Assembly (NCBI GenBank): GCA_049514395.1
Contig: JBEKVC010000001.1
Coordinates: 2,195-66,194 of the forward strand
DNA length: 64,000 bases
DNA from: Terriglobia bacterium
GTDB lineage: Bacteria; Acidobacteriota; Terriglobia; UBA7540
Reading direction: 5' to 3'
The notes under the pieces are model-generated. The model was not told the origin of the DNA. It saw nothing but the letters and a program-made list of their open reading frames with translations, and did not search any database. The translations under genes and the position numbers were made by a program. Every line of letters starts with the position of its first letter. Position 1 is the first letter of the stretch. Below are positions 690-38,717 of this stretch, one piece after another.

Positions 690-3600
690 CTAGAAGTAGA
701 ACTTCGCAGCCAACTGGATCAGCCTCGGGTCTCGAGCAGCCAGGATCCGGCCGAAGTTGCTCGATTGGATGTTGGTGCTGACCCCAGACGGATTGAACTG
801 GGTGTGGTTGAACAGGTTATAGAACTCGAAACGAAGTTCCACCCGGGTGGACTCAGTGATGCGTGTGTCCTTGAAAAAGGCCCAATCGAAGTTGTTGAGT
901 CCGCCCCCCCGCAAGGGGTTGCGCCCGGCATTGCCCTGCACGCCGATAGGCGCGCGGACGAACGTGTTGGGGTTAAACAAGTAGTGACTATTCGCACTGA
1001 GGCCCGACCTGGTGACGGTGTTGGTAAACGAAGAGCTGCGCGGATTGGCGTACTGTGGCGCCGACGCCAAGTCAGGAACATCCCAGCACGCCGTCCAGGT
1101 ATACGCCCAGCAGGTGAGCGAGCGGAAGCTGCTGTCCACCACGTCCAGCGGGAAGCCGGACTGCAAGACGGTGTCGCCACTCATCCGCCAGCCCTCGACG
1201 ATGCGCTTGGCCGCCCAGTTGTTGAAATGAGGGACAGGGATGAGGTAGGTGTAGCTGACCACAAACCGGTGGGTCGCGTCGTACTCGGACGGCCCGTAGT
1301 TGTACAGTGCCTGATTAAAGGGATTGGTAGCCCGGAGGCTGCCGTAGCCGCCGAACCCCCCGCCGCCGAACCCGGAGTTCTCAAACCCCGACCCGTTGTC
1401 CATAGCGTGAGACCAGGTGTAAATGGCATTGAGCGAGAGCCCGTGCGACATGTGCTGGTTGAAGACGACCTGCAAGGCGTTGTAATTCGACATGCCGGTC
1501 GTCTGGTTGTTCCCGATTCCCGCGAAGGTCAAGGGATAATACTGGAAATTCTGAGGATCGTTAAACCCTTGGTAAGTGCGGTTGGCCACGCAATTTGGGT
1601 CGGCCGCGCACCCCGAAGGGTTCAGCCCGGGGTTGAGCTCGCGGAGAATGACCTCCTTGCGTCCCAGGGCTCCGACGTAGGCGGCTGAAAGGATCGTGTT
1701 ACCCGAGAGCTGGCGCTCGACAGTCAGGTTGAAGTTCTGCGAGTACGGAACGGAGGTGTTGGGGTCCACCGCATACGGGAACATCGGCAGGTACGGACTG
1801 AAGTCCACGTTCGAGGGTGGGTTTGAAGGAACGGGAAACGGGTTGGGACACAGGGCGCCGGTCGCAATGTCCGCAAAGGGATTGGCAAAGCTCGGGCTTC
1901 CGCTGCACGCCGCGGCGCCCGTCGAGCTAAGAGAGAAGGGCGGCGCAGCAAGGAACTGCAAGGTCTGCTCTTCCAGCTCCCTGTCGAAGTAAATGCCGTA
2001 GCCGCCGCGGATGGCCCACTTGCCCGCACCGCCGGGGCTCCAGGCAAACCCGATACGAGGGCCGAAATGCCCGTACTTCGTCGTGCCCGTGGCATTCACT
2101 CCCGGATCACCCTGGAACAGGTAATCCTCAGGGGCGTTCGGGAAGATCGTGGACTGCTTGCCCGGCCGGAAGGCCGTCATGGCATGGTTGCTGTGGTAGA
2201 TGTCAATGGTCGGCGTGTCCACCTGCCAGCCCGTGCCGTAAGTGAGCGTCAGGTTCTTCCGGATCTTGAACTGATCCTGGAAATAGAAATAGTACTCCCG
2301 GCCCCTGGCGTTGATGATGTCTCCCCCCCCTTGACCGTAGGTGTCCGGGATGCCTAGGAGGAAATCCGCACCCGGATCTCCGGTCGAATAAACCCCCGTT
2401 CCTCCATAGGTGTAATTCCCGTCGAGCACATTGGCGAAGGGGTTGTAAACCTGGAAGCGGCGCATGTCGAACCCCATCTTGAACGTATGCCGCCCCGAGA
2501 TTCTTGTGAAGTTGTCATCCACCTGATACGTCTGGTCAAGGCGCGGCTGGGGGCCGTTGGTCGAGAACCCCAGGGTGAAGTATCCCGTGACCCCGATGAC
2601 GGGCCAACTGCTTCCCGACGGGTTCTGCGTAGTAATGCCCGTGAATCCCACGGACGACGGGTTTAGGACGTTGACCGGCAACACCGCGCCATAGTTGAAG
2701 CGCGTGTACCCAAATCGCGCCTCGTTGAGCGTACCGCCGCCAAAGGTGTGGTTCCAGGTCAGCGAATAGTTCCCCAAATGGCGCTGGTCCACCTCCGGGA
2801 ATCCCGGCAGGGTGGCGCCCGTGAAGGGCAAGGTATCGGTGGTGGGGTTGCGCTGCCACATCCAGGAGCCCCACAGGGCGTCTTTGGAACTGATGTTTTC
2901 GTCGATGCGCGTGAGGTACTGATCGGTCACTCCCGTGACGACGGGGTTGAAGTCGTATTCAGTCCCGGAGTTGGGCAGGGGAACAAACTTGTTCAGCAGG
3001 CTGACGGAAAGGGAATTGAAGTCGGCGGAGGGAATGGTCCCCGTGGGGAAGAGCGTGGAATAGGGCGTGCCCGCCGGATAGACCGTCCCGTCCTCGCCCG
3101 TCATAGCGTAAGGCGAGGGGACGTCGGAAGCGGCGATGTCGGGGAAGCTCCCGTTGCGCTGGTCCTGCGTAAACACCGTCGTCGTCCCTCCCGCCTGGGG
3201 ACTGCGGTTTCGCGTCCCCTGGTACGAGAAGAAGAAGAAGGTGTGATCCTTCTTGATGGGTCCGCCGATCGTGCCGCCGAATTGGTTCTGGTGGAAAATA
3301 ACGGAGGTCGGCTGGAAGAAATTCCGCGCGTCCAAGCTGGTGTCGCGGAAGAACTCGAAGCCATCGCCGTGGAACCGGTTGGCCCCGCCTTTGGTGACCG
3401 CATTCATAATCGCCCCGGAGTTGCGTCCATACTCGGGATTGATGGTGTTGGTCACCATGCGGACTTCCGCGATGGCGTCCGGGCTGGGGATCACCAGCGG
3501 CGTGTTCAGCGGCAGGTCGTTGCTGTCAATGCCGTTGATCAAGTAACTGTTCTGGTCGGGCTGGCTGCCGTTGGTGGCGTAATTGCCGCGCGCGTCGGCG

Positions 3601-4097
3601 GCCGCCACCACGCCCGGCAGGGTCTGCTGGAGCTGAACCCAATTTCGGCCATTCAGCGGTAAGTCCACGATCTGCGTTCCGGTCAGGGTCGCTCCCAGTT
3701 GCATGCTGGTCTTTTCAACTTGCATGGGGGTAGCTTCGACCGTCACCACCTGGGTGATTGCACCGAGCTCCATCGTGACGTTCAAGACATAAATCTGATT
3801 CAATGCCACAGGGATGTCGTTCACCTCGGCGGTTTTGAATCCCGACCGCGAGGCGGTCACTCTGTAAGTCGTCGGTGTGCGAATCTGAAGGAACTCGTAG
3901 CTCCCATCCGCTTTACTGGTGGTTGAGACGGAGATATTGGTGGCCACGTTTGTCGCCCTCAGCTTGACGTCGGGCATGACGGCGCCCGACTGGTCACTCA
4001 CTATACCGCGAATGCTTCCGAGTTCCTGGGCGAAAATCATGAGCGGCATTAAGAGCACTATAAATATAGGTGCGCAGATGCGCAGAATCTTTTGCAT
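690..4097 (-). CDS. TonB-dependent outer-membrane receptor with an N-terminal carboxypeptidase-regulatory-like domain (1135 aa)
   Basis: Signal peptide MQKILRICAPIFIVLLMPLMIFAQE, then GSIRGIVSDQSGAVMPDVKLRATN...DGSYEF (CarboxypepD_reg-like). The long beta-barrel body ends ...RVELRFEFYNLFNHTQF...LAAKFYF. SD GGAGGAAATGA lies upstream of the ATG. Confidence 0.9.
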   Translation of the reverse strand: MQKILRICAPIFIVLLMPLMIFAQELGSIRGIVSDQSGAVMPDVKLRATNVATNISVSTTSKADGSYEFLQIRTPTTYRVTASRSGFKTAEVNDIPVALNQIYVLNVTMELGAITQVVTVEATPMQVEKTSMQLGATLTGTQIVDLPLNGRNWVQLQQTLPGVVAAADARGNYATNGSQPDQNSYLINGIDSNDLPLNTPLVIPSPDAIAEVRMVTNTINPEYGRNSGAIMNAVTKGGANRFHGDGFEFFRDTSLDARNFFQPTSVIFHQNQFGGTIGGPIKKDHTFFFFSYQGTRNRSPQAGGTTTVFTQDQRNGSFPDIAASDVPSPYAMTGEDGTVYPAGTPYSTLFPTGTIPSADFNSLSVSLLNKFVPLPNSGTEYDFNPVVTGVTDQYLTRIDENISSKDALWGSWMWQRNPTTDTLPFTGATLPGFPEVDQRHLGNYSLTWNHTFGGGTLNEARFGYTRFNYGAVLPVNVLNPSSVGFTGITTQNPSGSSWPVIGVTGYFTLGFSTNGPQPRLDQTYQVDDNFTRISGRHTFKMGFDMRRFQVYNPFANVLDGNYTYGGTGVYSTGDPGADFLLGIPDTYGQGGGDIINARGREYYFYFQDQFKIRKNLTLTYGTGWQVDTPTIDIYHSNHAMTAFRPGKQSTIFPNAPEDYLFQGDPGVNATGTTKYGHFGPRIGFAWSPGGAGKWAIRGGYGIYFDRELEEQTLQFLAAPPFSLSSTGAAACSGSPSFANPFADIATGALCPNPFPVPSNPPSNVDFSPYLPMFPYAVDPNTSVPYSQNFNLTVERQLSGNTILSAAYVGALGRKEVILRELNPGLNPSGCAADPNCVANRTYQGFNDPQNFQYYPLTFAGIGNNQTTGMSNYNALQVVFNQHMSHGLSLNAIYTWSHAMDNGSGFENSGFGGGGFGGYGSLRATNPFNQALYNYGPSEYDATHRFVVSYTYLIPVPHFNNWAAKRIVEGWRMSGDTVLQSGFPLDVVDSSFRSLTCWAYTWTACWDVPDLASAPQYANPRSSSFTNTVTRSGLSANSHYLFNPNTFVRAPIGVQGNAGRNPLRGGGLNNFDWAFFKDTRITESTRVELRFEFYNLFNHTQFNPSGVSTNIQSSNFGRILAARDPRLIQLAAKFYF

Positions 4098-5314
4098 GGG
4101 TCATTTCCTCCTGGTTTGGGAATTTCGGGGTCCTCCACGCTCGCCATTCTCCTCGAACACGGTGGAGTTTGGCAGCAGGAAGGCTCCGGCCGCCGTCCTG
4201 GTTCGAGGTGTTTCCAGCAGCGCTACTTCAGCTATGGTTCGGAGGCTTCTAGTCCTGGAACAATCCAGCCTGGAACGGAAACAGTCACCCTCAAAACCCC
4301 TGTGGTTGTTTCCAAAATTGGTATGAGACGCCTTACCTCCGAACCAGTTGTGAAAAGCGTGATATCGTATTACAGGAGCACTCTTATGTTGCGGCAGTAG
4401 GCAATTTGATGCAGCCCTTGTGAAGGCTTTTGCGCGATTATCGAGCAATTCTCCGAGCCCAAGGCGGCACAAGAGGGTTAACCGTGAGGGATTCCAACCT
4501 TCGGTCATTAAGTCCGCCTCCACCGCTTGGTCTTAAGAGCGATCAGGTCTACAGTCAGGGAAGCTTTCGGTTCGCATCGACTAACCTGCCCACAACTCAA
4601 ATATTCGATAAAGCAATTTGTATTCCAAAGCAGATAGAGCACCTATCTCCATCATTCTAGAAGCGATGCTCCTTCCAGCTAAGTTTCAGTTACACAGTAC
4701 AATTCCAAAAATGGAATATCTGTACAAAAAGCTGTAGGCCTCTCCAAACTCGCGATATTCTCTTATCAGGCCCCGAGCAGCCTGTCTTCCCAATAAAGCC
4801 GAAAGGCCTGGCAGCTTCAAATCCCCGAGATGCCTAAACACTTGAAGTCGGTCGAACGCGTCGCCTCTTGGTTGCATGGGCCAACGTAACCACTATGGGC
4901 CGCTGCCACTCGACTGCCAAACCGCTTTGCGTAGCTGTTATTACTCCGGCCGAAACCAAATGTCAAGGACAAAATACAGCAGGATTAAATAACGGAGCTT
5001 TCCTAATTCTTTCACACCTTCTTGCGCCCTGGGCTAAGTTCTATCGCCCCCTAGGCGCGCTCCCCGCACCACCCTGCCGCTGCCACGGTAAGCTTTCACA
5101 TACATGTCATGCGCCAGCGGCAGGACCCCCACTTCTCTGTCGCACACCCGGGAGAATCGCTCTGCCTATCGAATTCGCCCTTTGTTCTGGATAGGGTTCT
5201 TGTTCATCCAAAGTTCAACAACAGTTCATCCACAGTGCATCGACATCGCAACTGGCCTAGAGCAAGATGGCTACGCAGTAAGAAAGTAGAGTCAAATGAA
5301 AAAGGAGAATCGAA

Positions 5315-5680
5315 ATGAATGTGAACATCAGAAGGTCTCTCGGAACATCGGCTTTGTCAGTGGCGCTGCTTTTGGCCTCCGGCATTCCCGCCTTGGCTAA
5401 GAACTCGCGGACTGTGACCTTTGGCCATGATTTCGTTCTGAACGGGACAACTGTCCCGGCAGGTAAGTGTTCTGTGCAGTGGGAAACCCACAGCCCTGAG
5501 GCAACCGTAGAATTCGTCCAGCACCACAAAGTTGTTCTCTCGACAGAAGGCAGAGTCGAGGAGCGTTCCCAGAGCTACGACCGCGATGCGGTTGTTTACA
5601 ACACCGCTTCGGACGGGACCATGTCTCTCGTTGAGATTCGCTTCGCTGACTCGAACAAGGTCCTCGTTTTCAATCAATAA
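5315..5680 (+). CDS. Small secreted hypothetical protein (121 aa)
   Basis: SD AAAGGAGAATCGAAATG and signal peptide MNVNIRRSLGTSALSVALLLASGIPALA. A hairpin follows at 5723-5750. No recognisable domain. Confidence 0.65.
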   Translation: MNVNIRRSLGTSALSVALLLASGIPALAKNSRTVTFGHDFVLNGTTVPAGKCSVQWETHSPEATVEFVQHHKVVLSTEGRVEERSQSYDRDAVVYNTASDGTMSLVEIRFADSNKVLVFNQ

Positions 5681-5722
5681 TACCTCACACTGAAAGCCGC
5701 CGCTGAGAACTCGGAAACTAAC

Positions 5723-5750
5723 TTGGCGGGCCGCTTTCACGGCCCGCCAA
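5723..5750 (+). terminator. Hairpin downstream of the 121-aa secreted protein gene
   Basis: TTGGCGGGCCG-CTTTCA-CGGCCCGCCAA is an 11-bp perfect stem. The trailing sequence CTATATTC is only weakly T-rich. Confidence 0.4.
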
Positions 5751-6004
5751 CTATATTCGGCAGAAAAATGCGCTTGCCCACTCCTGCTTTTCCCGTGGGT
5801 CCCAGAACCTTCCCCGTGTAAGATAGTGGGCTTATGGTCCCCCTTCAGCGACCACATCCGGCGGCGGAGCTTCTGGTTTGTCACTCTTGCCATCGTCATC
5901 GCGAATGTATGGGTCTTCTTCTTTGAACTTGCGCACGGTCCAAATATTAACTGACTGGTTTTTGTCTTTGGAATCGTCCCGGCGCGACATGTCGCGCGCT
6001 ATGA

Positions 6005-13924: not shown

Positions 13925-15532
13925 TCATGCGACTTCGAATTCCAGCCAGGAAATCGAGTGGCGCGGGAATTGGTACTCGAAGCGGCTGCCCGAGGCCTCG
14001 AGTTTCACCTCTTGAGTGACCACGTCATGAGGGTTCGCAAAGGTGTTCGTCGCCTCGGGGCTGGCGCCCGTGATCTGGAAAGCGCGGCCGCCGGGCTTGG
14101 CGCGCCGTCCTGCCAGTTCGACACTGCCCGTCATGTCGCCCTCCTTACGGCGATTGACAACCGCAAGCATGACTTTCTGCTGCGCTTCATCGTAGGTTGC
14201 CGCGACGTCAAGATAAGGCTGGTCGGAAAAGCCCTTGGTCTCAAAGCGTGGTGACTGCACCATCACATCCAGGGCGACGTTGCCGGAGCGGCTGGCATAC
14301 AGCTCCACCGGGTAATAGGTCGTCATCAGGAGCAGGCCGGTGGGTGAAGTTTGCATCAGCGCGATATCATTGACGAGCTGCGCGAGATTGGCCATGCGCA
14401 CGGTGCGGCAATGGCGCTGGATGGTATTCAAAGCCGACGCCACCCACAAAGCGTCCCGGAGGTTATAAATGATTTCGAATTTATGAACGTCATCACGCTT
14501 TGATCCGTCTGCCCAGTTGTTGATGATGTTCCACTCGTCGAGGGCGGTCCACACCGGCGTGGCCTTTCGTGCCTGGGCGGAGACGCTCTCGGCTACCAGG
14601 GCCGAGTTGCGTATCGTTTGTTCCATTTGTGCCACCGAACCCAGGATCTCGTAATAATCCTTCAGCTCGTCGGTGACCGAGTAATGGTGCGCGGAGATGT
14701 AGTCCACATGATGGACCATGGATTCGAGCACGGGCTGGTCCCAGCTCGGGTCGCCGGTGCCGCAGGCCACCAGCTTGATGCTGGGGTCTTGCCACTTCAT
14801 CACCTTGGCGAATTCCAGCCCCATTTTGGCGTAGTCCGCGACGTTCTTGTGGCCGATTTGCCAATCGCCGTAAATCTCGTTCCCAATGCCCCAGTACTTC
14901 ACAGCGTAGGGCTCAGGATGGCCATTTTTCTTACGCAAGTCTGAAAAGTAGGTCCCACCCTGCCGGTTGCAGTACTCCACCCAGGAGGAAGCTTCGTCGA
15001 TTGTGCCGGTGCCGATGTTGACGCAAATGTACGGCGCCGCTCCCAGCTTCCGACAAGTCGAAATGAATTCGTCGGTCCCGAAGCGGTTCGATTCGCGCTC
15101 GAACCACGCCAAGTCGTAACGCGCGGGCCGGGCATCCTTGGGGCCGATTCCATCCTGCCAGTGATAATCGGAGCCGAAGTTCCCGCCCGGCCATCGCAAT
15201 TGCGTGACGCGGAGCTTGCGCGCCGCCTCGAGAACGTCCGTGCGGTTCCCGTCGGCGTCGGCCAGAGGCGAGCCCTCATCGTACATCCCGCCATAGATGC
15301 ACCGGCCAAGATGCTCAATAAAGTTCCCGTAAATGTTGGGATCGATTGTGCCCAGACGCCGTTCAAGGTCGATCTTCAGGGTGGCAGGCAAAGGCAGCTC
15401 GCTGGGCCCGCCCAGGGAGCGGGCATAAACCTTCCGCCTCAGAAGTGGCTGTGCCGCCACGCCCAACCCCGCCGCCCGTAAGAAGTCCCGCCTCGTACAA
15501 GAATCGAAGAATTTCCAAGATGCTTCTAGCAT
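13925..15532 (-). CDS. abfA: GH51 alpha-L-arabinofuranosidase with a Tat-type signal
   Basis: Twin-arginine signal TRRDFLRAAGLGVAA. WGIGNEIYGDWQIG carries the GH51 acid/base GNE motif, and a C-terminal beta-sandwich follows. Start chosen at ATG 15532 (SD GGGAGG). The ORF is open to 15598. Confidence 0.85.
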   Translation of the reverse strand: MLEASWKFFDSCTRRDFLRAAGLGVAAQPLLRRKVYARSLGGPSELPLPATLKIDLERRLGTIDPNIYGNFIEHLGRCIYGGMYDEGSPLADADGNRTDVLEAARKLRVTQLRWPGGNFGSDYHWQDGIGPKDARPARYDLAWFERESNRFGTDEFISTCRKLGAAPYICVNIGTGTIDEASSWVEYCNRQGGTYFSDLRKKNGHPEPYAVKYWGIGNEIYGDWQIGHKNVADYAKMGLEFAKVMKWQDPSIKLVACGTGDPSWDQPVLESMVHHVDYISAHHYSVTDELKDYYEILGSVAQMEQTIRNSALVAESVSAQARKATPVWTALDEWNIINNWADGSKRDDVHKFEIIYNLRDALWVASALNTIQRHCRTVRMANLAQLVNDIALMQTSPTGLLLMTTYYPVELYASRSGNVALDVMVQSPRFETKGFSDQPYLDVAATYDEAQQKVMLAVVNRRKEGDMTGSVELAGRRAKPGGRAFQITGASPEATNTFANPHDVVTQEVKLEASGSRFEYQFPRHSISWLEFEVA

Positions 15533-15685
15533 AGAGCCTCCCATGACATGACTGTTTATTGCAGTGCAAAGAATACCGTGGAAGCCGCCGAATGTCACCC
15601 CTCCTTTGGAAAATAGAAATTGGAAAATGGGAACTGGAAATTGGAAAACAAGGTTGCCAGTTTCCAGTTTCCAGTTTCTAATTTC

Positions 15686-15779
15686 GGTAGTGGGCCAGTT
15701 TAATGTAGAGGCGGCTTTACGCCGTCCGCCGCGGCGGACGAGGTAAACTCGCCGCTACGCCTCAAATTGACCCACTACC
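15686..15779. mobile_element. 94-bp palindromic mini-element with GGTAGTG...CACTACC termini, flanked by CTAATTTC
   Basis: GGTAGTGGGCCAGTTTAATGTAGAGGCGG...CCGCTACGCCTCAAATTGACCCACTACC with the central perfect palindrome CGTCCGCCGCGGCGGACG. CTAATTTC lies on both sides (15678-15685 and 15780-15787). Confidence 0.45.
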
Positions 15780-15787
15780 CTAATTTC

Positions 15788-16212
15788 GGTAGTGTCCTAA
15801 ATGCGTGTTGCCAGCTTCTATTTTCCAGTTTCCAGTCTCCGAATCGTACTTATTTGCACCTATTTTTCGCTTTGATTGGGGTTCTTGGCACTGAAAAACC
15901 AGTTCGTTTTTGGCTCCTAAAAACGCTAACTCCTTTGCTTTAAATACATTCTTAGGTTCGTTCCCACGATTTAGTATCTTTTTTCGGTTTCCTGCGCATT
16001 TTCTCTGGCGCCCTGCCCCTGTCTGAACCCCTTCCCCTACTCCCCGGCCTGTTTCCCCACTGGACCACTCACATAGGCTACCATAATTCAGGCCGGGTGT
16101 CAAGAGCAAAGTGCGGGCGTCAGGTGTCGGGCGCCAGGGTTACCTGGCAAGGGGTGGGCGCTGGGGGCCAAGGGATGGTTTTGACCCACCAACACACATC
16201 TAGGACACCACC
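15788..16212. mobile_element. 425-bp MITE-like non-autonomous element related to the adjacent IS1-family element
   Basis: Terminal inverted repeats GGTAGTGTCCTAAATGCGTGTTG (15788-15810) and rc GGTGGTGTCCTAGATGTGTGTTG (16190-16212) match 20/23. They resemble the IS termini at 17/23. No credible ORF. CTAATTTC on both sides. Confidence 0.6.
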
Positions 16213-16267
16213 CTAATTTCGGTAGTGCCTGAATTTTGTGTTGGTGCTGAATAGCTTGAACGAATTC

Positions 16268-16846
16268 TTAGCTATCAAGGATAGTTTCGAATTCTTCTAA
16301 GAAGTGAATGTGTTCATCCGTTTTAAGTGGAGCGGCAGAGAAATATTTATTTTCGGAGAATTGAGCGCCTTCCAAGCGCTCGATTCTCAAGGGCAGCGAG
16401 TAAGAGACTCCTTCTGTAACGTCAAATTGGAAGTTTATTGCAGTCGTTTGAAAATCTAAGTGTTGCTTAGCGTGTCCCGAAACTATTTCTGTTAAGCGAG
16501 CGGCAAGCAAGTGCAGATTTGGATTAAGCGCATCCAAACTTCGTTGACTTCGGAAGTTAACCTGGCTTAGATAAAATCTCCTAGTGATTCCATCAGCAGG
16601 CGGTTGGATTCCAGATAGGGTGCAAAACCAATCCGTAATATCTTTCAGAACTCTTTCTGAGTCATCGGTAGATGATCTCGTATCCACGACTAGTCCTCTT
16701 GGATAAACCGTGTAGCTTTCTATGACGATGTTGCCCATTTTCCCAAGAGTGAATACGGCTCCCGTTGAGGGTTGCCGATACTCGTCTATAGTTGTGGGAA
16801 ATTTCTGGAAACCGTACCGTTCAACCATGCCTTTAACGAAATCCAT
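16268..16846 (-). CDS. Hypothetical protein (about 192 aa), third gene of the toxin-antitoxin-like operon
   Basis: The ORF is open to 16930, but ATG 16846 avoids overlap with the upstream gene (stop at 16857). Protein-like composition, no motif I can name. Confidence 0.6.
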   Translation of the reverse strand: MDFVKGMVERYGFQKFPTTIDEYRQPSTGAVFTLGKMGNIVIESYTVYPRGLVVDTRSSTDDSERVLKDITDWFCTLSGIQPPADGITRRFYLSQVNFRSQRSLDALNPNLHLLAARLTEIVSGHAKQHLDFQTTAINFQFDVTEGVSYSLPLRIERLEGAQFSENKYFSAAPLKTDEHIHFLEEFETILDS

Positions 16847-16856
16847 GGTATGGGTC

Positions 16857-17492
16857 TTACCTCGTGGGTCCCACTCGGGGAGATTCGTCAAAGCGGTTAC
16901 TCTGGCGAGCACGACGGCTAAAATCTCCATGGTAAGGAAAACCTCCAGGATTTAAGTTTGTGACCAAAGCGATAAAGGTGAATCGTGCCTCTTCTCCTTG
17001 TCTGGTACTGGCCCGTTCTATCACAGGATTTGGGGCGTCTTCAGTTCTGTCCTGTATTGCGTCCTCCCCCGATATTTTCTTGGCCAAAGCTGTATCAAGC
17101 TGTTCGTCTTCCGTAGATTTGTGGACAGAGGGTTCGTCAAGAGCTCCACGCTCAAGTTCACTTTGAAAACTAGGAACATCAAGCGTACTCAGACCTAGTC
17201 CAGGATCAACCCTTGGCGTGCCGCTGACCCAATCGACGAGTTGACTGAAAGGCACAAATCGAACAACGAGAGCCACGTCAAACACTGCCGCAACTTTCTT
17301 GAGAGTCGTAAGTGTCTGCTTTCCATAATTGGGATTCTCCAGACGATAAACCGCGTTTTGGTTTGACCCGAGTTTGTCAGCCAATTGCTGTTGACTCCAC
17401 TCTTTCTTATCCCTGAGAGCTTGAGTTTGGAACGCAATACCCTTACTTAAATGTGAATCGACAAACCTGATCCTTGCGTCCTTCCCCTTCAT
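16857..17492 (-). CDS. XRE-family HTH protein (HigA-like antitoxin candidate) with a long acidic C-terminal extension
   Basis: IAFQTQALRDKKEWSQQQLADKLGSNQNAVYRLENPNYGKQTLTTLKKVAAVFDVALVVRF is an HTH_3 signature. ATG 17492 lies 4 nt after the stop of the upstream toxin-like gene. The ORF is open to 17594. Confidence 0.75.
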   Translation of the reverse strand: MKGKDARIRFVDSHLSKGIAFQTQALRDKKEWSQQQLADKLGSNQNAVYRLENPNYGKQTLTTLKKVAAVFDVALVVRFVPFSQLVDWVSGTPRVDPGLGLSTLDVPSFQSELERGALDEPSVHKSTEDEQLDTALAKKISGEDAIQDRTEDAPNPVIERASTRQGEEARFTFIALVTNLNPGGFPYHGDFSRRARQSNRFDESPRVGPTR

Positions 17493-17496
17493 CAAT

Positions 17497-17937
17497 CTAC
17501 GAATCAGACCATTCTTGGAACTCGCAGACAGTCGCTTCTCTTCGCTCGATTTGCCTGAGACGTTCTTTTGCGATCCGTTTGCCATCTTTGTCATTCCTCA
17601 CATTCTTGTCATTAGCGTGTAGAAAAGTATATGAATGCTTGAATTCCTTGGGTCCGCGGAATCCATAAATCCGGTATGTGTATGTCTTGATAACTCCGCT
17701 TTCTTCACGCGAGATTTTGCCCGCCCTCAGTTCTGATATTCCACCTTCCCCTTTAAGAGGGTCAAAAGTGGGTTTTCTCCATTTACTCTTCGTCTTGACC
17801 CGCAAGTATTGAAGGAGATCACATATTTCATCTCGCACGTCATCTGGCAGACCATCAAACCAGCCCTGAACTGGACAGCCCTCTTGTTCCGATTTGAAAC
17901 AAAGGAACTTCCATTGCCATTTCGCCTTTGCACTCAT
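17497..17937 (-). CDS. Gp49 / HigB-like (RelE superfamily) toxin candidate
   Basis: The pattern ...LKGEGGISELRAGK...YRIYGFRGP...YTFLHANDKNVRNDKDGKRIAKERL resembles phage Gp49-like / HigB toxins, which pair with XRE antitoxins. Start uncertain: ATG 17937, or TTG 17964 in the ORF track. Confidence 0.65.
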   Translation of the reverse strand: MSAKAKWQWKFLCFKSEQEGCPVQGWFDGLPDDVRDEICDLLQYLRVKTKSKWRKPTFDPLKGEGGISELRAGKISREESGVIKTYTYRIYGFRGPKEFKHSYTFLHANDKNVRNDKDGKRIAKERLRQIERREATVCEFQEWSDS

Positions 17938-17947
17938 AGGATACCAC

Positions 17948-18002
17948 AAAAATGATGTTGTCAAACTTTTTTTAGTTTCCCTATTGACACAACATCATTT
18001 TT
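17948..18002. promoter_or_regulatory. Inverted repeat spanning divergent -35 boxes (candidate operator)
   Basis: AAAAATGATGTTGTCAA (17948-17964) and TTGACACAACATCATTTTT (17984-18002) are reverse complements apart from a 2-nt CA insertion. Each arm contains a TTGACA facing outward. Confidence 0.5.
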
Positions 18003-18012
18003 GATGTATGAT
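17984..18012 (+). promoter_or_regulatory. Near-consensus sigma70-type promoter driving the transposase leader
   Basis: TTGACA (17984-17989), a 17-nt spacer, then TATGAT (18007-18012). The predicted start is around 18019. Confidence 0.55.
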
Positions 18013-18018
18013 GTCTGT

Positions 18019-18286
18019 ATGATGATTAAAACAAAAGGCCAGCGAAACAATCAGGGTTTGACTGAATCGCTGGCCTTGTATCTTACGGGCCTGTGGGACG
18101 GTTCCCGCCTAAGCATGCTGGGTGCCCATAGCAGAGGGTTCAACTCCCTCCAGGTCCAATTTGAAATTAGCCCCACGAATAGCTGTAACTATCCGTGGGG
18201 CACATCCTCAGGCCGAAGCCGAAAGGACGGGGTTTCTAGGCCCTCCGTCATTTTCGCTCTAGGCCCCGGAGAAAGCAAGGGAGAAA
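18019..18286 (+). ncRNA. Candidate structured leader / ncRNA upstream of the IS1 transposase, including a tRNA-like acceptor/T-arm minihelix
   Basis: 11-bp hairpin at 18035-18077. Minihelix at 18087-18158: GGGCCTG pairs with CAGGTCC, with the T-arm GAGGG-TTCAACT-CCCTC. 8-bp hairpin at 18170-18201, a GGC-CGAA-GCC hairpin at 18211-18220 and a 7-bp hairpin at 18226-18249. SD AAGGGAG lies just before ATG 18287. Confidence 0.3.
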
Positions 18287-19237
18287 ATGACTTGCCACAA
18301 CTGCCGGATCGAATGCCGGAAATTTGGGAAGACTCGGAAGGGTCAGCAACGGTATCGTTGCTGCCAATGCTATAAAACGTATTCCGATCCTCGTAACGAG
18401 CACCTGGGCGGCATGTACACTGCCCCCGAGAAAGTGGAACGCGTTATCAATCTCCTGGTCGAGGGTTGCTCTATCCGTTCGATCCAGAGGCTCACTGGGA
18501 TTGACCAGAACACGATCATGAAGATTTTGGCGCTCGCCGGAAATCGCTGCCAGAGACTACTTGAGAGTAAGTGCCGAAACGTGCCTGTGTCCGATGTTCA
18601 ATGCGATGAAATCTGGGGCTTCGTGGGTTGCAAGGAAAAGCGCAATCAAACAGGTAATCCAGACTTTGGAGACGCCTACTGCTTTGTCGCTTTTGAGCGG
18701 GCCACTAAGATGGTGCTGACTTGGCATCTCGGACGAAGAACTGCTAACGACACAGAATATTTTGTGGAGAAGTTGAATGAAGCGACCACCGGAAAATTCC
18801 AAGTGACGACGGACGGATTCGCACCCTATTTCGACGCGATTCACACGTCTGTCGGAACACGGGTTGATTATGCGCAACTCATAAAAGTCTATGCCGCTCC
18901 CACTGACGAAGAACATCGCTATTCACCAGCCAGCGTGGTAGATGCCATTGCAAAGCCACTATGGGGCCAGCCCGACCCCGAGAGGATTTGTACATCACAC
19001 GTCGAGCGACAGAATTTGACGATGCGAATGCAGATTCGTAGGTTAACTCGCCTTACGAACGCGTTCTCGAAAAAGCGGGCTAACCTGTGGGCCGGTCTCG
19101 CCCTGTACTTTGCTTGGTACGATTTCTGCCGGATTCACCGTTCGATTCGCGTTACCCCCGCAATGGAAGCGGGGATCACGGATCACGTTTGGAGGGTGCA
19201 AGAGATGCTCGAATCAGTTTTGGGAGTCAAATCTTAG
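18287..19237 (+). CDS. IS1-family transposase, single-ORF type (316 aa)
   Basis: N-terminal zinc ribbon CHNC...CCQC, HTH SIRSIQRLTGIDQNTIMKIL and DDE blocks DEIWGFVGCKEK, TTDGFAPY and HVERQNLTMRMQIRRLTRLTNAFSKK (IS1 InsB signature). Confidence 0.9.
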   Translation: MTCHNCRIECRKFGKTRKGQQRYRCCQCYKTYSDPRNEHLGGMYTAPEKVERVINLLVEGCSIRSIQRLTGIDQNTIMKILALAGNRCQRLLESKCRNVPVSDVQCDEIWGFVGCKEKRNQTGNPDFGDAYCFVAFERATKMVLTWHLGRRTANDTEYFVEKLNEATTGKFQVTTDGFAPYFDAIHTSVGTRVDYAQLIKVYAAPTDEEHRYSPASVVDAIAKPLWGQPDPERICTSHVERQNLTMRMQIRRLTRLTNAFSKKRANLWAGLALYFAWYDFCRIHRSIRVTPAMEAGITDHVWRVQEMLESVLGVKS

Positions 19238-19255
19238 AAAGGAGGCAAGAACCGC

Positions 19256-19489
19256 ATGGCCTTTTCAGAAGATACAAAGGATGCAGCATGGCGGAGAGCA
19301 GGCGGTAAATGCGAATGCACTCGCAGTGTCTGCTCTCACCATGCTGGTCGCTGCAACGAATCGCTAACCGCTGGGAACTGGCACGCTCATCATAAGACCG
19401 CCGAGATCATCGGCGGAAGCGACAATCTATCTAACTGCGAAGCTCTCTGCATTCGGTGTCACAAGAACACCCGAACGTATGGTGCTTAG
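19256..19489 (+). CDS. Small HNH endonuclease-domain protein (77 aa)
   Basis: SD AAGGAGG upstream. Motif NWHAHHKTAEIIGGSDNLSNCEALCIRCHKNT gives the H-N-H arrangement with flanking Cys pairs. Confidence 0.7.
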   Translation: MAFSEDTKDAAWRRAGGKCECTRSVCSHHAGRCNESLTAGNWHAHHKTAEIIGGSDNLSNCEALCIRCHKNTRTYGA

Positions 19490-19817
19490 CCAAAACTCGC
19501 TTTAGGGCAGAGAAGGCTCTACCAGAGTCCTCTGCCCTAGAGCTTATTTTCCCCATCGCATCACTGCCGTTAAAAACCTCAACGGAAACGGAGTATTCCC
19601 CCACAGAACGTAAAGCTGGCTCAATAATCTCGAACAAAAAATTCCCAACAGTCTGCCATCCGTCAAGCTGGAAATACACGTAGGCTTCACCCGGATCGCC
19701 TTGGCAACTGCCAACCGTCTGAAGGTGAGGCAGAGTATTCAGCAGTTCTACTATCTCGGCCATACGCTCATCGACGTGTGCGTTGACCTTGACCCAAGTT
19801 TGCGGATGACTAGACAC
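19431..19817 (-). CDS. Hypothetical protein (128 aa) inside the IS right arm
   Basis: GTG start with GGAG 7 nt upstream and protein-like composition. Its 3' end overlaps the HNH gene convergently by 59 nt, which lowers confidence. Confidence 0.45.
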   Translation of the reverse strand: MSSHPQTWVKVNAHVDERMAEIVELLNTLPHLQTVGSCQGDPGEAYVYFQLDGWQTVGNFLFEIIEPALRSVGEYSVSVEVFNGSDAMGKISSRAEDSGRAFSALKRVLAKHHTFGCSCDTECRELRS

Positions 19818-19968
19818 CTTACCGCTCCAGAGATTATTGATAGAGCAAGAAAAACTTCACAGAGATCAACACAAATTTCAGGCACCACCCTAATTTCCAG
19901 TTTCTTGACTTGCTTCGCGCGGGTACCTAGAATTGACAGTTTGCATCACTGACAGGCAGGCTGACTGT

Positions 19969-21492
19969 ATGCCGTTCCGCATCTACAACACACTGAGCGG
20001 GCAAATCGAAGAGTTCAAGCCGCTCCACGACAATAAGGTCGGCATGTATACCTGCGGGCCCACTGTTTACGATTTCCCCCACATCGGCAATTACCGGACC
20101 TTCGTGTTCCAGGACATCCTGCGACGCTGGCTGAAGTACCGGGGATACACGCTCCGGCACGTCATGAACCTGACGGATGTGGACGACAACACCATCCGCA
20201 ATTCCCAAGCCGCGGGCGTGTCGTTGCGCGAGTACACAGAGAAATACGTCGAAGCCTTCCAAATGGATCGCCAACTCTTGAGCCTCGAGGATCCTGAAAT
20301 CGTAGTGCGCGCCACGGACTCGATCGCTGACATGGTGAAGGTGATCCAGACGCTGGTTGAAAAAGGTTACGCCTACGCGAGTGAGGGCTCGATCTACTTC
20401 CGGGTGGCCGCATTCAAGAATTATGGCCAACTGTCCAAGATCGACCTTTCGGGCATCCGCGACGGGGCACGGATTGATACGGACAAGTACGACAAGAACG
20501 ACGCCCGCGACTTTGCGCTCTGGAAGGCGCCGAAGGAAGGCGAGCCCTTTTGGGAGACGCCGCTCGGCCCCGGGCGGCCCGGCTGGCACATCGAGTGCTC
20601 GGTGATGTCCATGAAATTCCTGGGCGAGACTTTTGACATCCACTCCGGAGGCGTCGATCTTATCTTCCCCCATCACGAGAACGAGATTGCGCAGAGCGAG
20701 GCGGCCACGGGCAAGCCCTTCGTGCGCTACTGGCTGCACGCCGAGCATCTAATCGTCAACGGCGAGAAGATGTCGAAGTCACTGGGCAATTTCTATACGC
20801 TGCGCGACCTTTTAGCCAAGGGTTACAAGCCCTCGGCGATCCGATACTTGCTGGCCTCTGTCCCTTACCGCCGGCATTTGAACTTCACCTTTGATGGCCT
20901 GCACCAGGCGCAACAATCCATCGACCGGCTCAGGAATTTCCGCTTCCGGCTTACCCAAGAGTCATTCTCTGCGGGGGAGAATGCCGCTTTGCAGGATCGT
21001 GCCCGCGCCGCCTGCCAGGCGTTTGAAGATGCCATGGACGACAACTTGAACACCGCCGAAGCCCTCGGCGCCGTCTTCGCCATGGTGCGGGATGGAAACA
21101 CAGCCATGGACCAGGGCGAATTCCGCACGGGTGATCGCGCTGCCTTCCTGGACACGCTGGAGCGCTGGGACCGCATCTTCTGCGTTCTCGACGACAATGA
21201 CCACGAAAAGCTGGTGAAATTTGGTTTCATCAAATCCCGCGATTCAAGCCTGGGCGCTCTCGTCTCTCCGCCGCCTGCGGACGTCGGACAGCCGGCAATT
21301 GGGAATGGGCACACCGGCGCGGTGGCGATGGAGTCGCTGAGCAACGAGGAAATCGAGAGATGGGTTGCGGAACGTGACGAGGCGCGTCGCAAGGGCAGTT
21401 TTACCCGCGCCGATGAAATTCGCCAGAATCTTCAGAAGGTCGGTGTTATACTAGAGGATAGCAAGCTCGGAACTCGTTGGAAGCGGGAGTAG
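19969..21492 (+). CDS. cysS: Cysteine--tRNA ligase
   Basis: MPFRIYNTLSG start, HIGH-type motif PHIGNYRT and KMSKS motif. The ORF-track TTG at 19933 is more likely part of a TTGACA box. Confidence 0.92.
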   Translation: MPFRIYNTLSGQIEEFKPLHDNKVGMYTCGPTVYDFPHIGNYRTFVFQDILRRWLKYRGYTLRHVMNLTDVDDNTIRNSQAAGVSLREYTEKYVEAFQMDRQLLSLEDPEIVVRATDSIADMVKVIQTLVEKGYAYASEGSIYFRVAAFKNYGQLSKIDLSGIRDGARIDTDKYDKNDARDFALWKAPKEGEPFWETPLGPGRPGWHIECSVMSMKFLGETFDIHSGGVDLIFPHHENEIAQSEAATGKPFVRYWLHAEHLIVNGEKMSKSLGNFYTLRDLLAKGYKPSAIRYLLASVPYRRHLNFTFDGLHQAQQSIDRLRNFRFRLTQESFSAGENAALQDRARAACQAFEDAMDDNLNTAEALGAVFAMVRDGNTAMDQGEFRTGDRAAFLDTLERWDRIFCVLDDNDHEKLVKFGFIKSRDSSLGALVSPPPADVGQPAIGNGHTGAVAMESLSNEEIERWVAERDEARRKGSFTRADEIRQNLQKVGVILEDSKLGTRWKRE

Positions 21493-23681: not shown

Positions 23682-24725
23682 TTGCCTGAACTAAGAAGAG
23701 ACCCCATCACCGGGCGGTGGGTCATCATTTCTACTGACCGAGCCATAAGGCCAACGGATTTCGTCCGGGACAAAGTTCAGATTCGTGGCTCGGGCTTCTG
23801 TCCATTCTGCCCTGGCAACGAAAAGAAAACGCCGCCGGAAATTCATGCTTACCGCAACGGTAGCGCACGGGATACCCCCGGCTGGTCGCTGCGCATTGTG
23901 CCGAACAAGTTCCCGGCCCTGGGTATCGAGGGAACACTCAACCGGCAGGGTGAAGGCCTTTACGACAAAATGAATGGCATCGGAGCGCACGAGGTCATTA
24001 TCGAGACGCCGGAGCACAACCTGACCTTGGCCACCATGCCCACGCGCAAAGTCGAGGACGTGCTTTGGGCTTACCGCGACCGCATTCGGGACCTCAAGAA
24101 AGACCGGCGCTTCAAATACATCCTGATCTTCAAGAACCACGGTGAGGCTGCGGGCGCCTCGCTCGAGCATACCCACTCCCAGCTCATCGCTCTGCCCGTT
24201 GTGCCGAAGCGCGTCCGCGAAGAGGTGGACGGCGCGCGTGAACACTACAACTTCAAAGAGCGCTGCATCTTTTGCGATATCATCCGCCAGGAGATGGAAA
24301 AGAGTGCGCGCCTGATTGCGGATAATCAGGCCTTCGTGGTTCTGGCGCCCTTTGCTCCAAGATTCCCCTTTGAGATATGGATCATCCCCAAGACCCACCA
24401 ATGTGCCTTCGAGGAATCCCAGAAAGCTGAATTCGAGCAACTCGCTCCGATTCTGAAGGATATGCTGTCGCGTCTGGACCGCGTGCTGGAGTGGCCTGCT
24501 TACAACTACATCATTCACACCGCGCCCATCGGGGAATCCACAGAGGATTACTACCACTGGCACCTGGAGATCATGCCAAAACTGACCAAAGTCGCCGGCT
24601 TTGAATGGGGCACGGGCTTCTACATCAATCCCACACCGCCGGAGGAGTCCGCAAAGTTCTTGCGCGAGGCGGCCCAGCCCCCAGAAGCTCCCACGGACGC
24701 ATCGCAGAAGGGCGGGCTGGGGTAG
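23682..24725 (+). CDS. galT: Galactose-1-phosphate uridylyltransferase-like HIT-family nucleotidyltransferase (347 aa)
   Basis: RRDPITGRWVIISTDR, zinc motif CPFCPGNE and the active-site histidine triad variant SLEHTHSQLIA. TTG start. Confidence 0.85.
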   Translation: MPELRRDPITGRWVIISTDRAIRPTDFVRDKVQIRGSGFCPFCPGNEKKTPPEIHAYRNGSARDTPGWSLRIVPNKFPALGIEGTLNRQGEGLYDKMNGIGAHEVIIETPEHNLTLATMPTRKVEDVLWAYRDRIRDLKKDRRFKYILIFKNHGEAAGASLEHTHSQLIALPVVPKRVREEVDGAREHYNFKERCIFCDIIRQEMEKSARLIADNQAFVVLAPFAPRFPFEIWIIPKTHQCAFEESQKAEFEQLAPILKDMLSRLDRVLEWPAYNYIIHTAPIGESTEDYYHWHLEIMPKLTKVAGFEWGTGFYINPTPPEESAKFLREAAQPPEAPTDASQKGGLG

Positions 24726-24828
24726 TGTTTTAATATGCGACGTAGGGCCGGGGCTTGCTTGCCCTAGCCTGGCCGCCCCAAGGGGCGGCCCGACATTCTA
24801 ATTAGGACACTCCCCGGGCTGAACCGGC

Positions 24829-24858
24829 TTGACTTTACGAATCACCGCTTCCTATAAT
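24829..24858 (+). promoter_or_regulatory. Consensus-like promoter for the tRNA-Gly/tRNA-Cys pair
   Basis: TTGACT (24829-24834), an 18-nt spacer, then TATAAT (24853-24858). It lies 30 nt upstream of tRNA-Gly. Confidence 0.55.
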
Positions 24859-24888: not shown

Positions 24889-24963
24889 GCGGGAATAACT
24901 CAGTGGTAGAGTGCGACCTTGCCAAGGTCGAAGTCGCGGGTTCGAATCCCGTTTCCCGCTCCA
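24889..24963 (+). tRNA. tRNA-Gly (anticodon GCC), CCA encoded
   Basis: Cloverleaf by eye: acceptor GCGGGAA/TTCCCGC, anticodon arm CGACC-TTGCCAA-GGTCG, T-arm GCGGG-TTCGAAT-CCCGT, then T-CCA. Confidence 0.9.
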
Positions 24964-25053: not shown

Positions 25054-25128
25054 GGCGCGGTACCCAAGTGGTAAGGGAGAGGTCTGCAAAACCTTTATGC
25101 GTGAGTTCGATTCTCACCCGCGCCTCCA
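25054..25128 (+). tRNA. tRNA-Cys (anticodon GCA), CCA encoded
   Basis: Acceptor GGCGCGG/CCGCGCC, anticodon arm GAGGT-CTGCAAA-ACCTT, T-arm GTGAG-TTCGATT-CTCAC, then T-CCA. Confidence 0.9.
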
Positions 25129-28066: not shown

Positions 28067-28984
28067 ATGAGTGTCGGGGCATCCGTTCGGCAGGGACTCT
28101 CCATCGCACGCCGCACCGGGTCGGCAGTCGGGATTCTGTTCCTTGCTAATCTCACCATTGCCGCGCTCGCCGGATTTCCTATCTATCGTGGTATCCAGCG
28201 TTTCACCGGGCACAGCCTTATGGGCCGGGAACTGGCGCGTGGCTTCTCAGTTGATTGGTTAACAGATTTCGCCTTCAACAATCCGGGCAGCTTCGATCGT
28301 TATGCGACGGTGATTGTTTACATGGGCTTCGTCTCGTTGGCGCTGAACTCGATTCTGGCCGGGGGCGTGTTGACTCGCTTTAAGGCGCCTGACCTGAAGT
28401 ATTCGCTCGGAGATTTCTTTCGCCACACCGGACACTACGCATGGCGTTTGCTGCGTCTCCTGGTCATCGGTCTCATTTGCTATTGGATCATCTTCAAGCT
28501 CCTGAATGAAAAATTGGGCCAGTTGGTGGATCACTGGGTGGGCAACTGGGCCGACGACCGCGCGGTTTTCTCGGCTCGCCTCGCAGTCTCATTGCTCGTG
28601 GTGCTGGGCCTGGGTTTTGTCAACTTGGTCATGGACTATGCACGCGTCCGGCTGGTGCTGGAAGAGGGTACGGGCGCGATCCAAGCCTTCCTCGCTTCGC
28701 TGGGTTTTTCTCTCGGCCGGCTTAGGAGAGCAATAGGAGTCTATGTCGTGCCTTCATGCTTCGGCTTGGCGCTCCTGGGAGTTTACCGGCTGCTGCTCCC
28801 ATGGGGATTCGTCAATTCAACCATCGCCGGCGGGCCGCACGTTCGTGAACTCCTGGCGCTGGCCAGCCTTTTTGTTGTTCAACAAGCCATTATGTTCGGC
28901 CGTTACTGGTTCCGCGTGGCCACCTGGGCCAGCGAGTGGTCCTACTACTCCAGCACAAGACAGCCGCTGGAGACTCGGGGCTAG
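28067..28984 (+). CDS. Multi-pass membrane protein of unknown function (about 305 aa)
   Basis: At least 6 hydrophobic helices. Start chosen at ATG 28067 after GAGGA. The ORF is open from GTG 28046. Confidence 0.7.
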   Translation: MSVGASVRQGLSIARRTGSAVGILFLANLTIAALAGFPIYRGIQRFTGHSLMGRELARGFSVDWLTDFAFNNPGSFDRYATVIVYMGFVSLALNSILAGGVLTRFKAPDLKYSLGDFFRHTGHYAWRLLRLLVIGLICYWIIFKLLNEKLGQLVDHWVGNWADDRAVFSARLAVSLLVVLGLGFVNLVMDYARVRLVLEEGTGAIQAFLASLGFSLGRLRRAIGVYVVPSCFGLALLGVYRLLLPWGFVNSTIAGGPHVRELLALASLFVVQQAIMFGRYWFRVATWASEWSYYSSTRQPLETRG

Positions 28985-29205
28985 GGACTAGGGGCTGGGG
29001 GCTGGGAACTAGGGGCTGGGGGCTGGGGAGCAGGGCAATTCTGAATGGTGAATTCTGAATGATGAATTGAAGAAGCGCAGCGGTCAGAGGCCCGGGGCGC
29101 GGCGCGCAAAGCAAGTTCTGCATCCCCAATTCACCATTCACTATTCACTATTCATAATTCCGCTTCCTGCTCTTCTTCTGACTCCTGACTTCTGACTCCT
29201 GTCTT
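28985..29205. repeat. Copy B (inverted) of the 10828-10981 repeat, with GGGGCTGGGG and GACTCCTGACTTCTGA word tracts
   Basis: The reverse complement of 29030-29160 aligns with 10861-10981. It lies between two convergent genes. Confidence 0.7.
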
Positions 29206-29207
29206 CC

Positions 29208-37594: not shown

Positions 37595-37750
37595 AGACGA
37601 GTCCAAGTTCGAAATTCGGGTTCAACTGACCACGGACCCGCCATGGCGGGACCCCGACAAAGAGCTCGTTAAACAAACTTCGGGTCTCGAATTCCCATTT
37701 TCGGTTGTTGGGTTTCTAGTTTCTGCTTTCTAATTTCTGCTTTCTAATTT

Positions 37751-38695: not shown

Positions 38696-38717
38696 GATGG
38701 TTCTCCTTGGTACAAAA

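Follow-up and report, generated by a model that had tools for sequence, protein, structure and literature searches.

Three IS1-type elements stacked in one 8-bp target beside the cysS promoter of a Terriglobia bacterium, and a putative promoter-anchored choice of target

In a 64,000-nt stretch of a Terriglobia bacterium genome (assembly GCA_049514395.1, contig JBEKVC010000001.1, positions 2,195 to 66,194; hereafter the window), three elements of the IS1 insertion sequence (IS) family stand head to tail between a GH51 arabinofuranosidase gene on the minus strand and cysS on the plus strand, and every junction carries the same 8-mer, CTAATTTC. We named them by their lengths in bp: U94 is a miniature inverted-repeat transposable element (MITE), U425 probably another, and U3669 encodes a transposase together with passenger genes (Table 1). 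Comparison with related genomes and metagenome contigs (labelled L001 onwards) established that target-site duplications and empty sites exist, that the elements belong to the IS1 family, that such stacks are general in the clade and that element ends are positionally associated with TTGAC and −10 boxes. As the explanation we favor, with somewhat more confidence than doubt, three elements of one IS1 clade would have entered a single 8-bp target, which was reused because the choice of target is one-sided and anchored on the promoter.

The same 8-mer joins three different elements at the cysS locus

The original prediction, made by reading the letters alone, had described the array as three inverted-repeat units separated by copies of one 8-mer, and a sequence search recovered all four plus-strand copies of CTAATTTC where it had placed them. 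The 8-mer occurs eight times in the whole window against 1.3 expected by chance, and the 15-mer CTAATTTCGGTAGTG exactly three times (15678, 15780 and 16213). Unit lengths were correct, and every interval between consecutive copies opens with GGTAGTG and closes with CAC(T/C)ACC. We also reproduced the complementarity of the termini, 20/23 for U425 and 22/25 for U3669 (21/23 between its inverted repeats (IRs), GGTAGTGCCTGAATTTTGTGTTG and GGTGGTGCCTGAAATTTGTGTTG), and the likeness between the termini of these two units (17/23). Beyond their tips the three units share no similarity. The outer flanks, predicted to be continuous, indeed read as a single unbroken tract of CCAGTTT-type heptamers, and the heptamer arms of the left flank form an inverted repeat (I3, 84% complementary) within the divergent GH51-cysS intergenic region.

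The order U425, CTAATTTC, U3669, CTAATTTC, cysS was also present in two independent metagenome contigs, L001 and L103, with 99.5 to 99.8% identity over the shared region; U3669 itself is 99.97 to 100% identical in them, passenger set included. The junction between U94 and U425 and the leftmost junction were seen in the window only.

Contigs with the cysS locus of relatives were retrieved via their CysRS proteins. GH51 and cysS are adjacent in L146 (97% nucleotide identity over cysS), where the site is empty and a single 8-mer, CTGATTTC, lies in the tract ...gttgccagtttccagattCTGATTTCcagtttccagtttcttgacttgc. The site is empty as well in L148 and L149 (95% over cysS; tract ...cccagtttCTAATTTCcac...), with a single CTAATTTC in L148, and the heptamer tract runs uninterrupted in L146 and L148. 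Because these empty sites hold a single 8-mer, the four copies of CTAATTTC in the window are target-site duplications. The empty site that the original prediction had advised looking for therefore exists, and its reading of the array as three successive insertions into one 8-bp target, regenerated each time, gains support from it.

The same position is occupied differently in two other relatives: L147 has a 1754-bp non-autonomous element flanked by the duplication TAACTCTC, and in L150 a CACTACC end is followed by CTCGCTGC. Among the window, L147 and L150, the position next to cysS thus varies both in its element and in its local 8-mer, and in both relatives the distance from the element tip to the conserved TTTCTTGAC is identical to that in the window.

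Table 1. Features of the stack, of its host site and of the second promoter site (positions in the window)
Feature	Position	Strand	Details
Host left flank	15606..15685	.	inverted heptamer arms: (TTGGAAA)n 15606-15647, (GTTTCCA)n 15653-15685
Target-site duplication, copy 1, CTAATTTC	15678..15685	+	
U94, palindromic MITE	15686..15779	.	GGTAGTGGG tips, GC-rich hairpin core
Target-site duplication, copy 2, CTAATTTC	15780..15787	+	
U425, non-coding IR-bounded element	15788..16212	+	ends GGTAGTGTCCTAAATG...CATCTAGGACACCACC; interior opens with heptamer tract 15807-15840
Target-site duplication, copy 3, CTAATTTC	16213..16220	+	
U3669, IS1-family element with passenger genes (transporter IS)	16221..19889	+	left IR (IRL) 16221-16243, right IR (IRR) 19867-19889
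Passenger open reading frame (ORF), unassigned function	16268..16930	-	220 aa as listed; called as 192 aa in L001
HTH_3 ORF	16857-17594	-	HTH_3 38.7 bits
Gp49/HigB-like ORF	17497-17964	-	Gp49 19.6 bits, below its cut-off
IS1-family transposase, single ORF, 316 aa	18287..19237	+	PF03400, NCBIfam IS1, homologues
Possible HNH protein, 77 aa	19256-19489	+	HNH 25.2 bits, cut-off 21.4
128-aa passenger ORF	19431-19817	-	matches 110-aa call in L001
Target-site duplication, copy 4, CTAATTTC, promoter-adjacent	19890..19897	+	
cysS promoter (landmark)	19905..19933	+	TTGACT 19905-19910, N17, TAGAAT 19928-19933; promoter scan 10/12
Second MITE site	24713..24858	+	94-bp IS1-type MITE 24721-24814; CGGGCTGG 24713-24720, CGGGCTG 24815-24821

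Element tips are over-represented at a fixed distance from TTGAC

The shared distance from tip to promoter in L147, L150 and the window prompted a positional test for TTGAC. The cysS promoter is conserved in L146, L147, L148 and L150; in the window, counting outward from the IRR tip of U3669, its −35 box begins at position 16, the register being the 8-mer, 7 nt and then the hexamer, and the ATG of cysS lies at 19972. Among 52 unique non-junction flanks, TTGAC was found at outward position 16 in eight, with a total of three occurrences at 55 other positions (binomial P ~1e-15). When the pattern was searched as CACYACC-N15-TTGAC in the 1.32 Mb analysed, ten unique cases were found, against zero to three for any other spacing. 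A TAnnnT box follows the hexamer by 16 to 18 nt at 6 of the 10 independent sites, compared with 9% of background TTGAC, so most of these hexamers are genuine −35 boxes of promoters. T occupies position 17 in 28/50 flanks (P = 5e-6), an enrichment that persists without the TTGAC subset, and the 3' end of the transposase gene points toward the promoter in 6 of the 7 cases with known orientation.

A second site in the window, which was not used in forming the idea of a landmark, has the same register. A tRNA operon has its −35 box 15 nt downstream of the MITE at 24721-24814: after CGGGCTG, a right-hand duplication that has lost one G, come AACCGGC, TTGACT (24829-24834), N18 and TATAAT (24853-24858), followed by tRNA genes at 24889-24960 and 25054-25125. 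This site is empty in L146, and in L148 the same 8-mer, CGGGCTGG, holds a different MITE, one of the U94 family. Two promoters of the window and their homologues in relatives were struck independently by different elements, at a fixed distance from a feature that lies outside the duplicated bases.

The strict sequence or structure targeting that the original prediction had suggested stands in a modified form, with a −35-like TTGAC 7 nt beyond the 8-mer as the putative signal. Recognition of the 8-mer itself was rejected, given that duplications and flanks elsewhere are unrelated in sequence. Its second suggestion, insertion beside a resident end, keeps some probability and may be required for certain stacks elsewhere in which the landmark is missing.

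If target choice works in the way we favor, the transposition machinery would set the tip of the element 15 nt ahead of a −35 hexamer of the sigma-70 type (TTGAC), all of the recognised information being on the promoter side of the cut; the hexamer itself, or RNA polymerase bound there, may be what is recognised. After an insertion the promoter-proximal 8-mer and the promoter would again make up a complete target on which the next element lands, and with 8 bp duplicated each time, a head-to-tail stack with an identical 8-mer at all junctions would be built. The elements would have arrived in the order U94, U425 and U3669, the newest beside the promoter, with the MITEs probably mobilised in trans. 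Insertion at about −51 would spare the core promoter, leaving an essential gene in working order. Identical junction 8-mers, the head-to-tail order, a newest element proximal to the promoter and the lack of recognition of the 8-mer are all predicted by one-sided, promoter-anchored targeting, and the window is consistent with these predictions.

Stacks with one shared duplication recur in soil and peat metagenomes

A scan for the IRs of the large element, with one genome per species, gave 28 loci, none of them in the source genome and most in metagenome-assembled genomes of Terriglobia and other Acidobacteriota. Their flanks are mutually unrelated and mostly GC-rich, and none of the roughly 30 ends from this unbiased scan was stacked. 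Where both ends were present, the 8-bp duplications were all different (GGCTGGCG, TGGCTGAA and others), and TAACTCTC and CGGGCTGG are further unrelated examples from the relatives. Duplications of 8 bp were recorded in L017, L022, L053, L055, L115, L131, L147 and L148 and one of 9 bp in L070; apart from the cysS site, those of the clade have 59% GC and lie outside repeats. Two findings that would have spoken against serial insertion were not made: other copies of these termini do carry flanking duplications, and CTAATTTC-GGTAGTG did not turn out to be a host repetitive extragenic palindromic unit.

We then scanned metagenomes for a large-element end followed at 6 to 10 bp by any GGTRGTG tip. 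Many of the 115 loci recovered were unrelated coding sequences, and about 35, judged by eye, were genuine abutted ends, most with an 8-bp spacer. In at least 14 independent stacks from soil and peat metagenomes the spacer equals the outer duplication; this equality was not part of the search pattern and is hence a real test. In L131, AAATGTTA occurs three times, around a 152-bp MITE and a 3511-bp element that abut between the flanks. Three junction copies of their own 8-mer were found in each of the stacks L118, L042 and L143/L083, while L070 repeats a 9-mer at two junctions and has a further tip after the second of them, which makes at least three elements. Spacers also match in L053, L055, L061, L072, L113, L115, L037 and L046. 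Stacked neighbors mostly have different IR interiors, and in the complex arrays L069, L108, L122 and L043 successive junction spacers differ.

Several side observations concern the composition of these stacks. Palindromes of 28 to 39 bp with little beyond two IR tips are present in L042 (1132-1199), L046, L060, L072 (2397-2435), L118 (1377-1414) and L128; they share their flanking duplication with a larger neighbor and may be minimal MITEs or scars of near-precise excision. L102 and L113 agree in every base of a 39-bp stretch made up of IR, 8-mer and next tip but differ in the element after the shared tip, and L083 and L143, one locus in two samples, have the same flank and 8-mer, CGAAAAAT, with a different outermost element. 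These differences point to turnover within stacks.

Some contigs had to be read with care. In the metagenome contigs L166-L175 and L103, which span such 4-kb elements, flanks from different copies are combined (three left and three right types, in mixed pairs), so that their pairing is untrustworthy; contigs with the transposase P0017 are chimeras between copies, and the left part of L103 is likely one too. Transposases found on several contigs (P0002, P0039 and P0050) mostly represent one locus sampled repeatedly and added few independent sites.

Points against promoter anchoring and alternative explanations

Several observations weigh against promoter-anchored targeting. The hexamer is present in only about 15% of flanks, roughly 30% of insertions, and because only a minority of flanks carry TTGAC, it is not the sole determinant; TTGAC is missing from both sides of the complete stacks L118 and L042. 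Motif and position alike were first noticed in part of the dataset later used for the test, and the independent confirmations are few (L015, L025, L017, L169, L190, the second site of the window and L148), although each is improbable by chance. The sample of about 50 flanks comes largely from metagenome contigs, some of them chimeric, and the intermediate haplotype, with U94 and U425 but without U3669, was not found in the contigs examined. Selection could enrich promoter-proximal insertions, though it would not explain a register exact to a single nucleotide. The helix-turn-helix (HTH) of the transposase matched sigma-70 region 4 (Sigma70_r4_2) at E = 0.037, below threshold; neither this comparison nor a structure search, which was uninformative, gave any sign of the hexamer being recognised by transposase or by RNA polymerase, and no candidate for a dedicated targeting protein was identified. 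The speculative idea that the hexamer mimics an inner IR motif did not hold up: in 8-bp stacks the register of the IR CCTGAA is off by one base, and the overlap with the motif at IR positions 16 to 21 is limited to T17/G18.

The alternative that survives best, which we consider unlikely but deserving of attention, is that resident ends are the target. Transposase on a resident IR would direct the next element into the abutting 8 bp, and the promoter would matter for the first insertion or never. Abutted ends one duplication length apart, common in the clade, and the 14 stacks in which spacer and outer duplication agree are expected from it, and this or some other determinant is needed for L118 and L042. 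It has a precedent in IS30, whose IR targeting creates IR-IR junctions with a spacer as long as the 2-bp duplication of this element (PMC9333248). Resident-end targeting leaves unexplained, however, the single elements at a fixed distance from TTGAC and the different elements, each with another local 8-mer, at the same promoter position across lineages, and it fits poorly with the absence of stacked ends in the unbiased scan. Moreover, the IR interiors of the three stacked elements differ (17/23 or less), so that only the 7-bp tip would be left for cross-recognition. U425 and U3669 have their A-type and G-type tips in the same orientation, as both resident-end and landmark targeting would have it.

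A structural hot spot, in which the AT-rich heptamer hairpin, as a cruciform or as bent DNA, draws insertions regardless of promoters or resident ends, seems improbable to us. The site does lie within one arm of a long imperfect inverted heptamer array, and classical IS1 is said to favor AT-rich DNA. Against this, the other duplications of the clade are GC-rich and outside repeats, L150 and L147 are occupied at the same promoter position without an upstream heptamer tract, the tRNA-promoter site has no heptamers, and a diffuse preference would not reuse identical 8 bp three times.

We give very little credence to insertions that were not independent (a tandem dimer formed in place and then decayed, a CTAATTTC carried by the elements, or an assembly artefact): IS30 is known to form dimers whose spacer derives from the flank, some metagenome contigs in the vicinity of these elements are chimeric, and the two-tip palindromes may have been left by decay or excision of an element. 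But the three units share tips only, which led us to reject a decayed dimer, each type has relatives at other loci in other surroundings, the 8-mer is present in the empty site, two independent contigs repeat the junctions from U425 through U3669 to cysS, and units with no more than 7 to 23 bp in common cannot be joined by a k-mer assembler.

U94, a MITE, and U425, a probable MITE, belong to different sub-families

U94 folds into a single long hairpin (DNA minimum free energy −26.8 kcal/mol, z = −4.85), and a 97-bp member of its family stands at another locus, L148 8352-8448, within a perfect 8-bp duplication, CGGGCTGG. Being short, non-coding, bounded by IRs and flanked by duplications, with a copy elsewhere, U94 is, by these sequence features, a member of a mobile MITE family. 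No credible ORF was found in U425 or U94, and no RNA gene accounts for them, since an Rfam scan of 15300-20300 gave sub-threshold chance matches only.

Other copies of U425 are indicated indirectly: a variant left end of U425 is joined to unrelated DNA in L103, as a second copy or a chimera, and the cysS locus of L147 has a U425-like remnant (78% similar). The tip types GGTAGTGGGC, GGTAGTGTCCTAA and GGTAGTGCCTGAA recur elsewhere in different autonomous and non-autonomous elements; the stack therefore comprises three sub-families, rather than derivatives of one element.

The interior of U425 opens with heptamers that match the host flank at 82% identity, and the rest is 78% similar to L147 596-905, where L147 has no recognisable IRs. 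Either two insertions of the family took place at this locus or U425 took up intergenic DNA from its surroundings. Intergenic regions of the window are in general rich in short tandem arrays of 7-bp units (for example 28966-29206, 32784-33113, 37713-37757, 38717-38758 and 39040-39142), the unit sequence varying from place to place and the arms often being inverted; at cysS, copy number differs among close relatives.

U3669 carries an IS1-family transposase and passenger genes

The transposase matched the IS1 catalytic domain of Pfam (PF03400) with 33.3 bits (cut-off 24.1) and the NCBIfam IS1 model NF033558 with 94.7 bits, just under the cut-off of 100; against NF050000 it scored 19.1 bits, below the cut-off of 28. 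Thousands of homologues of 308 to 313 aa occur in Terriglobia, annotated as 'IS1 family transposase', while an exact look-up of the sequence gave no match. The candidate DDE residues D107, D176 and E240 are invariant in 26 homologues, as are C3, C6 and C25 of a putative N-terminal CxxC...CxxC zinc ribbon, with C28 nearly so. A putative HTH lies at about residues 47-96, with helices 47-58, 63-70 and 74-96 modelled at a predicted local distance difference test score (pLDDT) of 70 to 82. The AlphaFold model was poor outside residues 1-100 (mean pLDDT 58), and its Foldseek comparison with PDB gave nothing below E = 0.3. The original prediction had pointed to the IS1 family for its 8-9 bp duplications, and assignment to this family is supported by the matches to IS1 models and by the 8-bp duplications of relatives.

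At least five ORFs that do not serve transposition lie within the IRs, as in a transporter IS, and related elements elsewhere have overlapping cargo. The Gp49/HigB-like and HTH_3 ORFs are probably a toxin-antitoxin module, judging from their domains; the pair is also present in related elements of L002 and L166-L175. The 220-aa ORF has 225-aa homologues in the P0017 element.

Further features of the large elements were noted. Upstream of the transposase gene, U3669 has a near-consensus promoter, TTGACA-N17-TATGAT, and then a 27-nt inverted repeat (17984-18012 and 18027-18085); at 18087-18158 there is a tRNA-like Rfam match below threshold (25.2 bits, gathering score 29). In L002 (8314-8344 and 11381-11419), whose transposase is 86% identical, the first seven bases of the left IR are GGGAGCG, and GGGAGCGC also follows the right-hand duplication, giving a direct repeat of about 14 bp (ATCACTGGGAGCGC), as if flank had replaced the left tip. 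P0002, the closest transposase relative found in several samples (87% identical; L156-L165), has as neighbors a fragment of a DNA methyltransferase, the reverse transcriptase of a group II intron, a resolvase and integrases, in what looks like a nest of mobile elements. In L150 GH51 and cysS are separated by a gene for a GH3 glycosidase (838 aa), in a segment (~3020-5922) that is bounded on the right by an IS1-type CACTACC tip with the flank CTCGCTGC and on the left by CTCGCGGC and then GGTGTGG, a weak left IR; this segment may be a cargo-carrying, IS1-tipped element at the promoter landmark.

Comparison with known systems and significance

IS1 duplicates 8-9 bp (PMC12428005). The elements described here resemble it in the match to the DDE catalytic domain, probably in a zinc ribbon with an HTH, and in the GGT-initial IRs of about 23 bp (within the ~20-25 bp of the family), the 8-bp duplication and the derived MITEs. 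They differ from it in size and content, U3669 having 3.7 kb and its passenger ORFs where IS1 has 768 bp, in their host, Terriglobia, and in their one uninterrupted 316-aa ORF in place of the insA/insB' pair with a programmed −1 frameshift of classical IS1. As far as we know, this frameshift does not define the whole family, in which single-ORF members exist, and the classical tip is GGTGATG. We regard the elements as new members of the IS1 family, all of whose testable defining features were found in the sequence except the classical insA/insB' frameshift. To our knowledge, neither promoter-anchored target choice nor stacking has been described for IS1; a literature search returned nothing on stacking in this family or on insertion anchored on a −35 box, and its incomplete coverage makes this weak evidence of absence.

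A broader proposal, to which we lend slightly less than even confidence, is that the whole Acidobacteriota IS1 clade, with its autonomous elements, cargo carriers and MITEs of varied IR interior, reads the sigma-70 promoter via the transposase HTH or promoter-bound RNA polymerase. If so, these elements would insert 15 nt ahead of the hexamer, in most cases pointing the same way as the gene that follows, and would be the bacterial DDE equivalent of Ty and TRE elements, whose integration is directed to promoters and tRNA genes. One-sided recognition without immunity would explain self-renewing hot spots, stacks, local rearrangements and the capture of cargo. As far as we know, most bacterial ISs are thought to be loose in their target choice, and the precise cases rely on repeats, transposon ends, guide RNAs or targeting proteins, so a plain DDE element inserting at a fixed distance from −35 boxes would represent a new mode of target choice. 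Such landmark targeting would explain both how elements persist beside essential genes (cysS and tRNA operons) without killing the host and how they pile up in arrays with one common duplication. Promoter-proximal DNA would then be a site of recurrent rearrangement in soil Acidobacteriota, and the system is a possible tool for promoter-directed insertion, if recognition proves portable.

Ends as preferred targets are known from the IR targeting of IS30 and from the insertion of IS911 next to IR-like sequences (PMC9333248). The likeness to the present stacks, in which a new element abuts a resident end at one duplication length, is a structural resemblance only: IS30 and IS911 belong to other families (IS30 and IS3), move by copy-out-paste-in through circles or dimers, form reactive, unstable junctions and have no promoter landmark, whereas the abutting elements here are heterologous and their stack is conserved in independent environmental contigs. 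Tandem accretion at an attachment (att) site likewise builds size-graded arrays of autonomous and non-autonomous elements with the same junction repeat and a target regenerated each time, but it works through tyrosine or serine recombinases and a specific att core, in contrast to the staggered-cut duplications of a DDE enzyme and an 8-mer that differs from site to site.

Landmark-directed transposons include Tn7, guided by TnsD to attTn7, the yeast elements Ty3 and Ty1, and the Dictyostelium TRE elements upstream of tRNA genes. Like these, the elements of the window keep a constant spacing to a feature that is not part of the duplication, prefer one orientation and occupy a safe haven that spares genes, and, as with Ty and TRE, one of the two sites is a tRNA promoter. 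Tn7, Ty and TRE depend on dedicated targeting proteins or Pol III contacts, while the landmark here is a bacterial −35 hexamer; and where target immunity of Tn7 blocks a second insertion, here there is none, and stacks of two to three or more elements are formed. In conclusion, by analogy with these systems, the behavior of the Terriglobia elements appears to combine the abutted-end outcome of the IS30 type with the landmark logic of Tn7, Ty and TRE, minus immunity.

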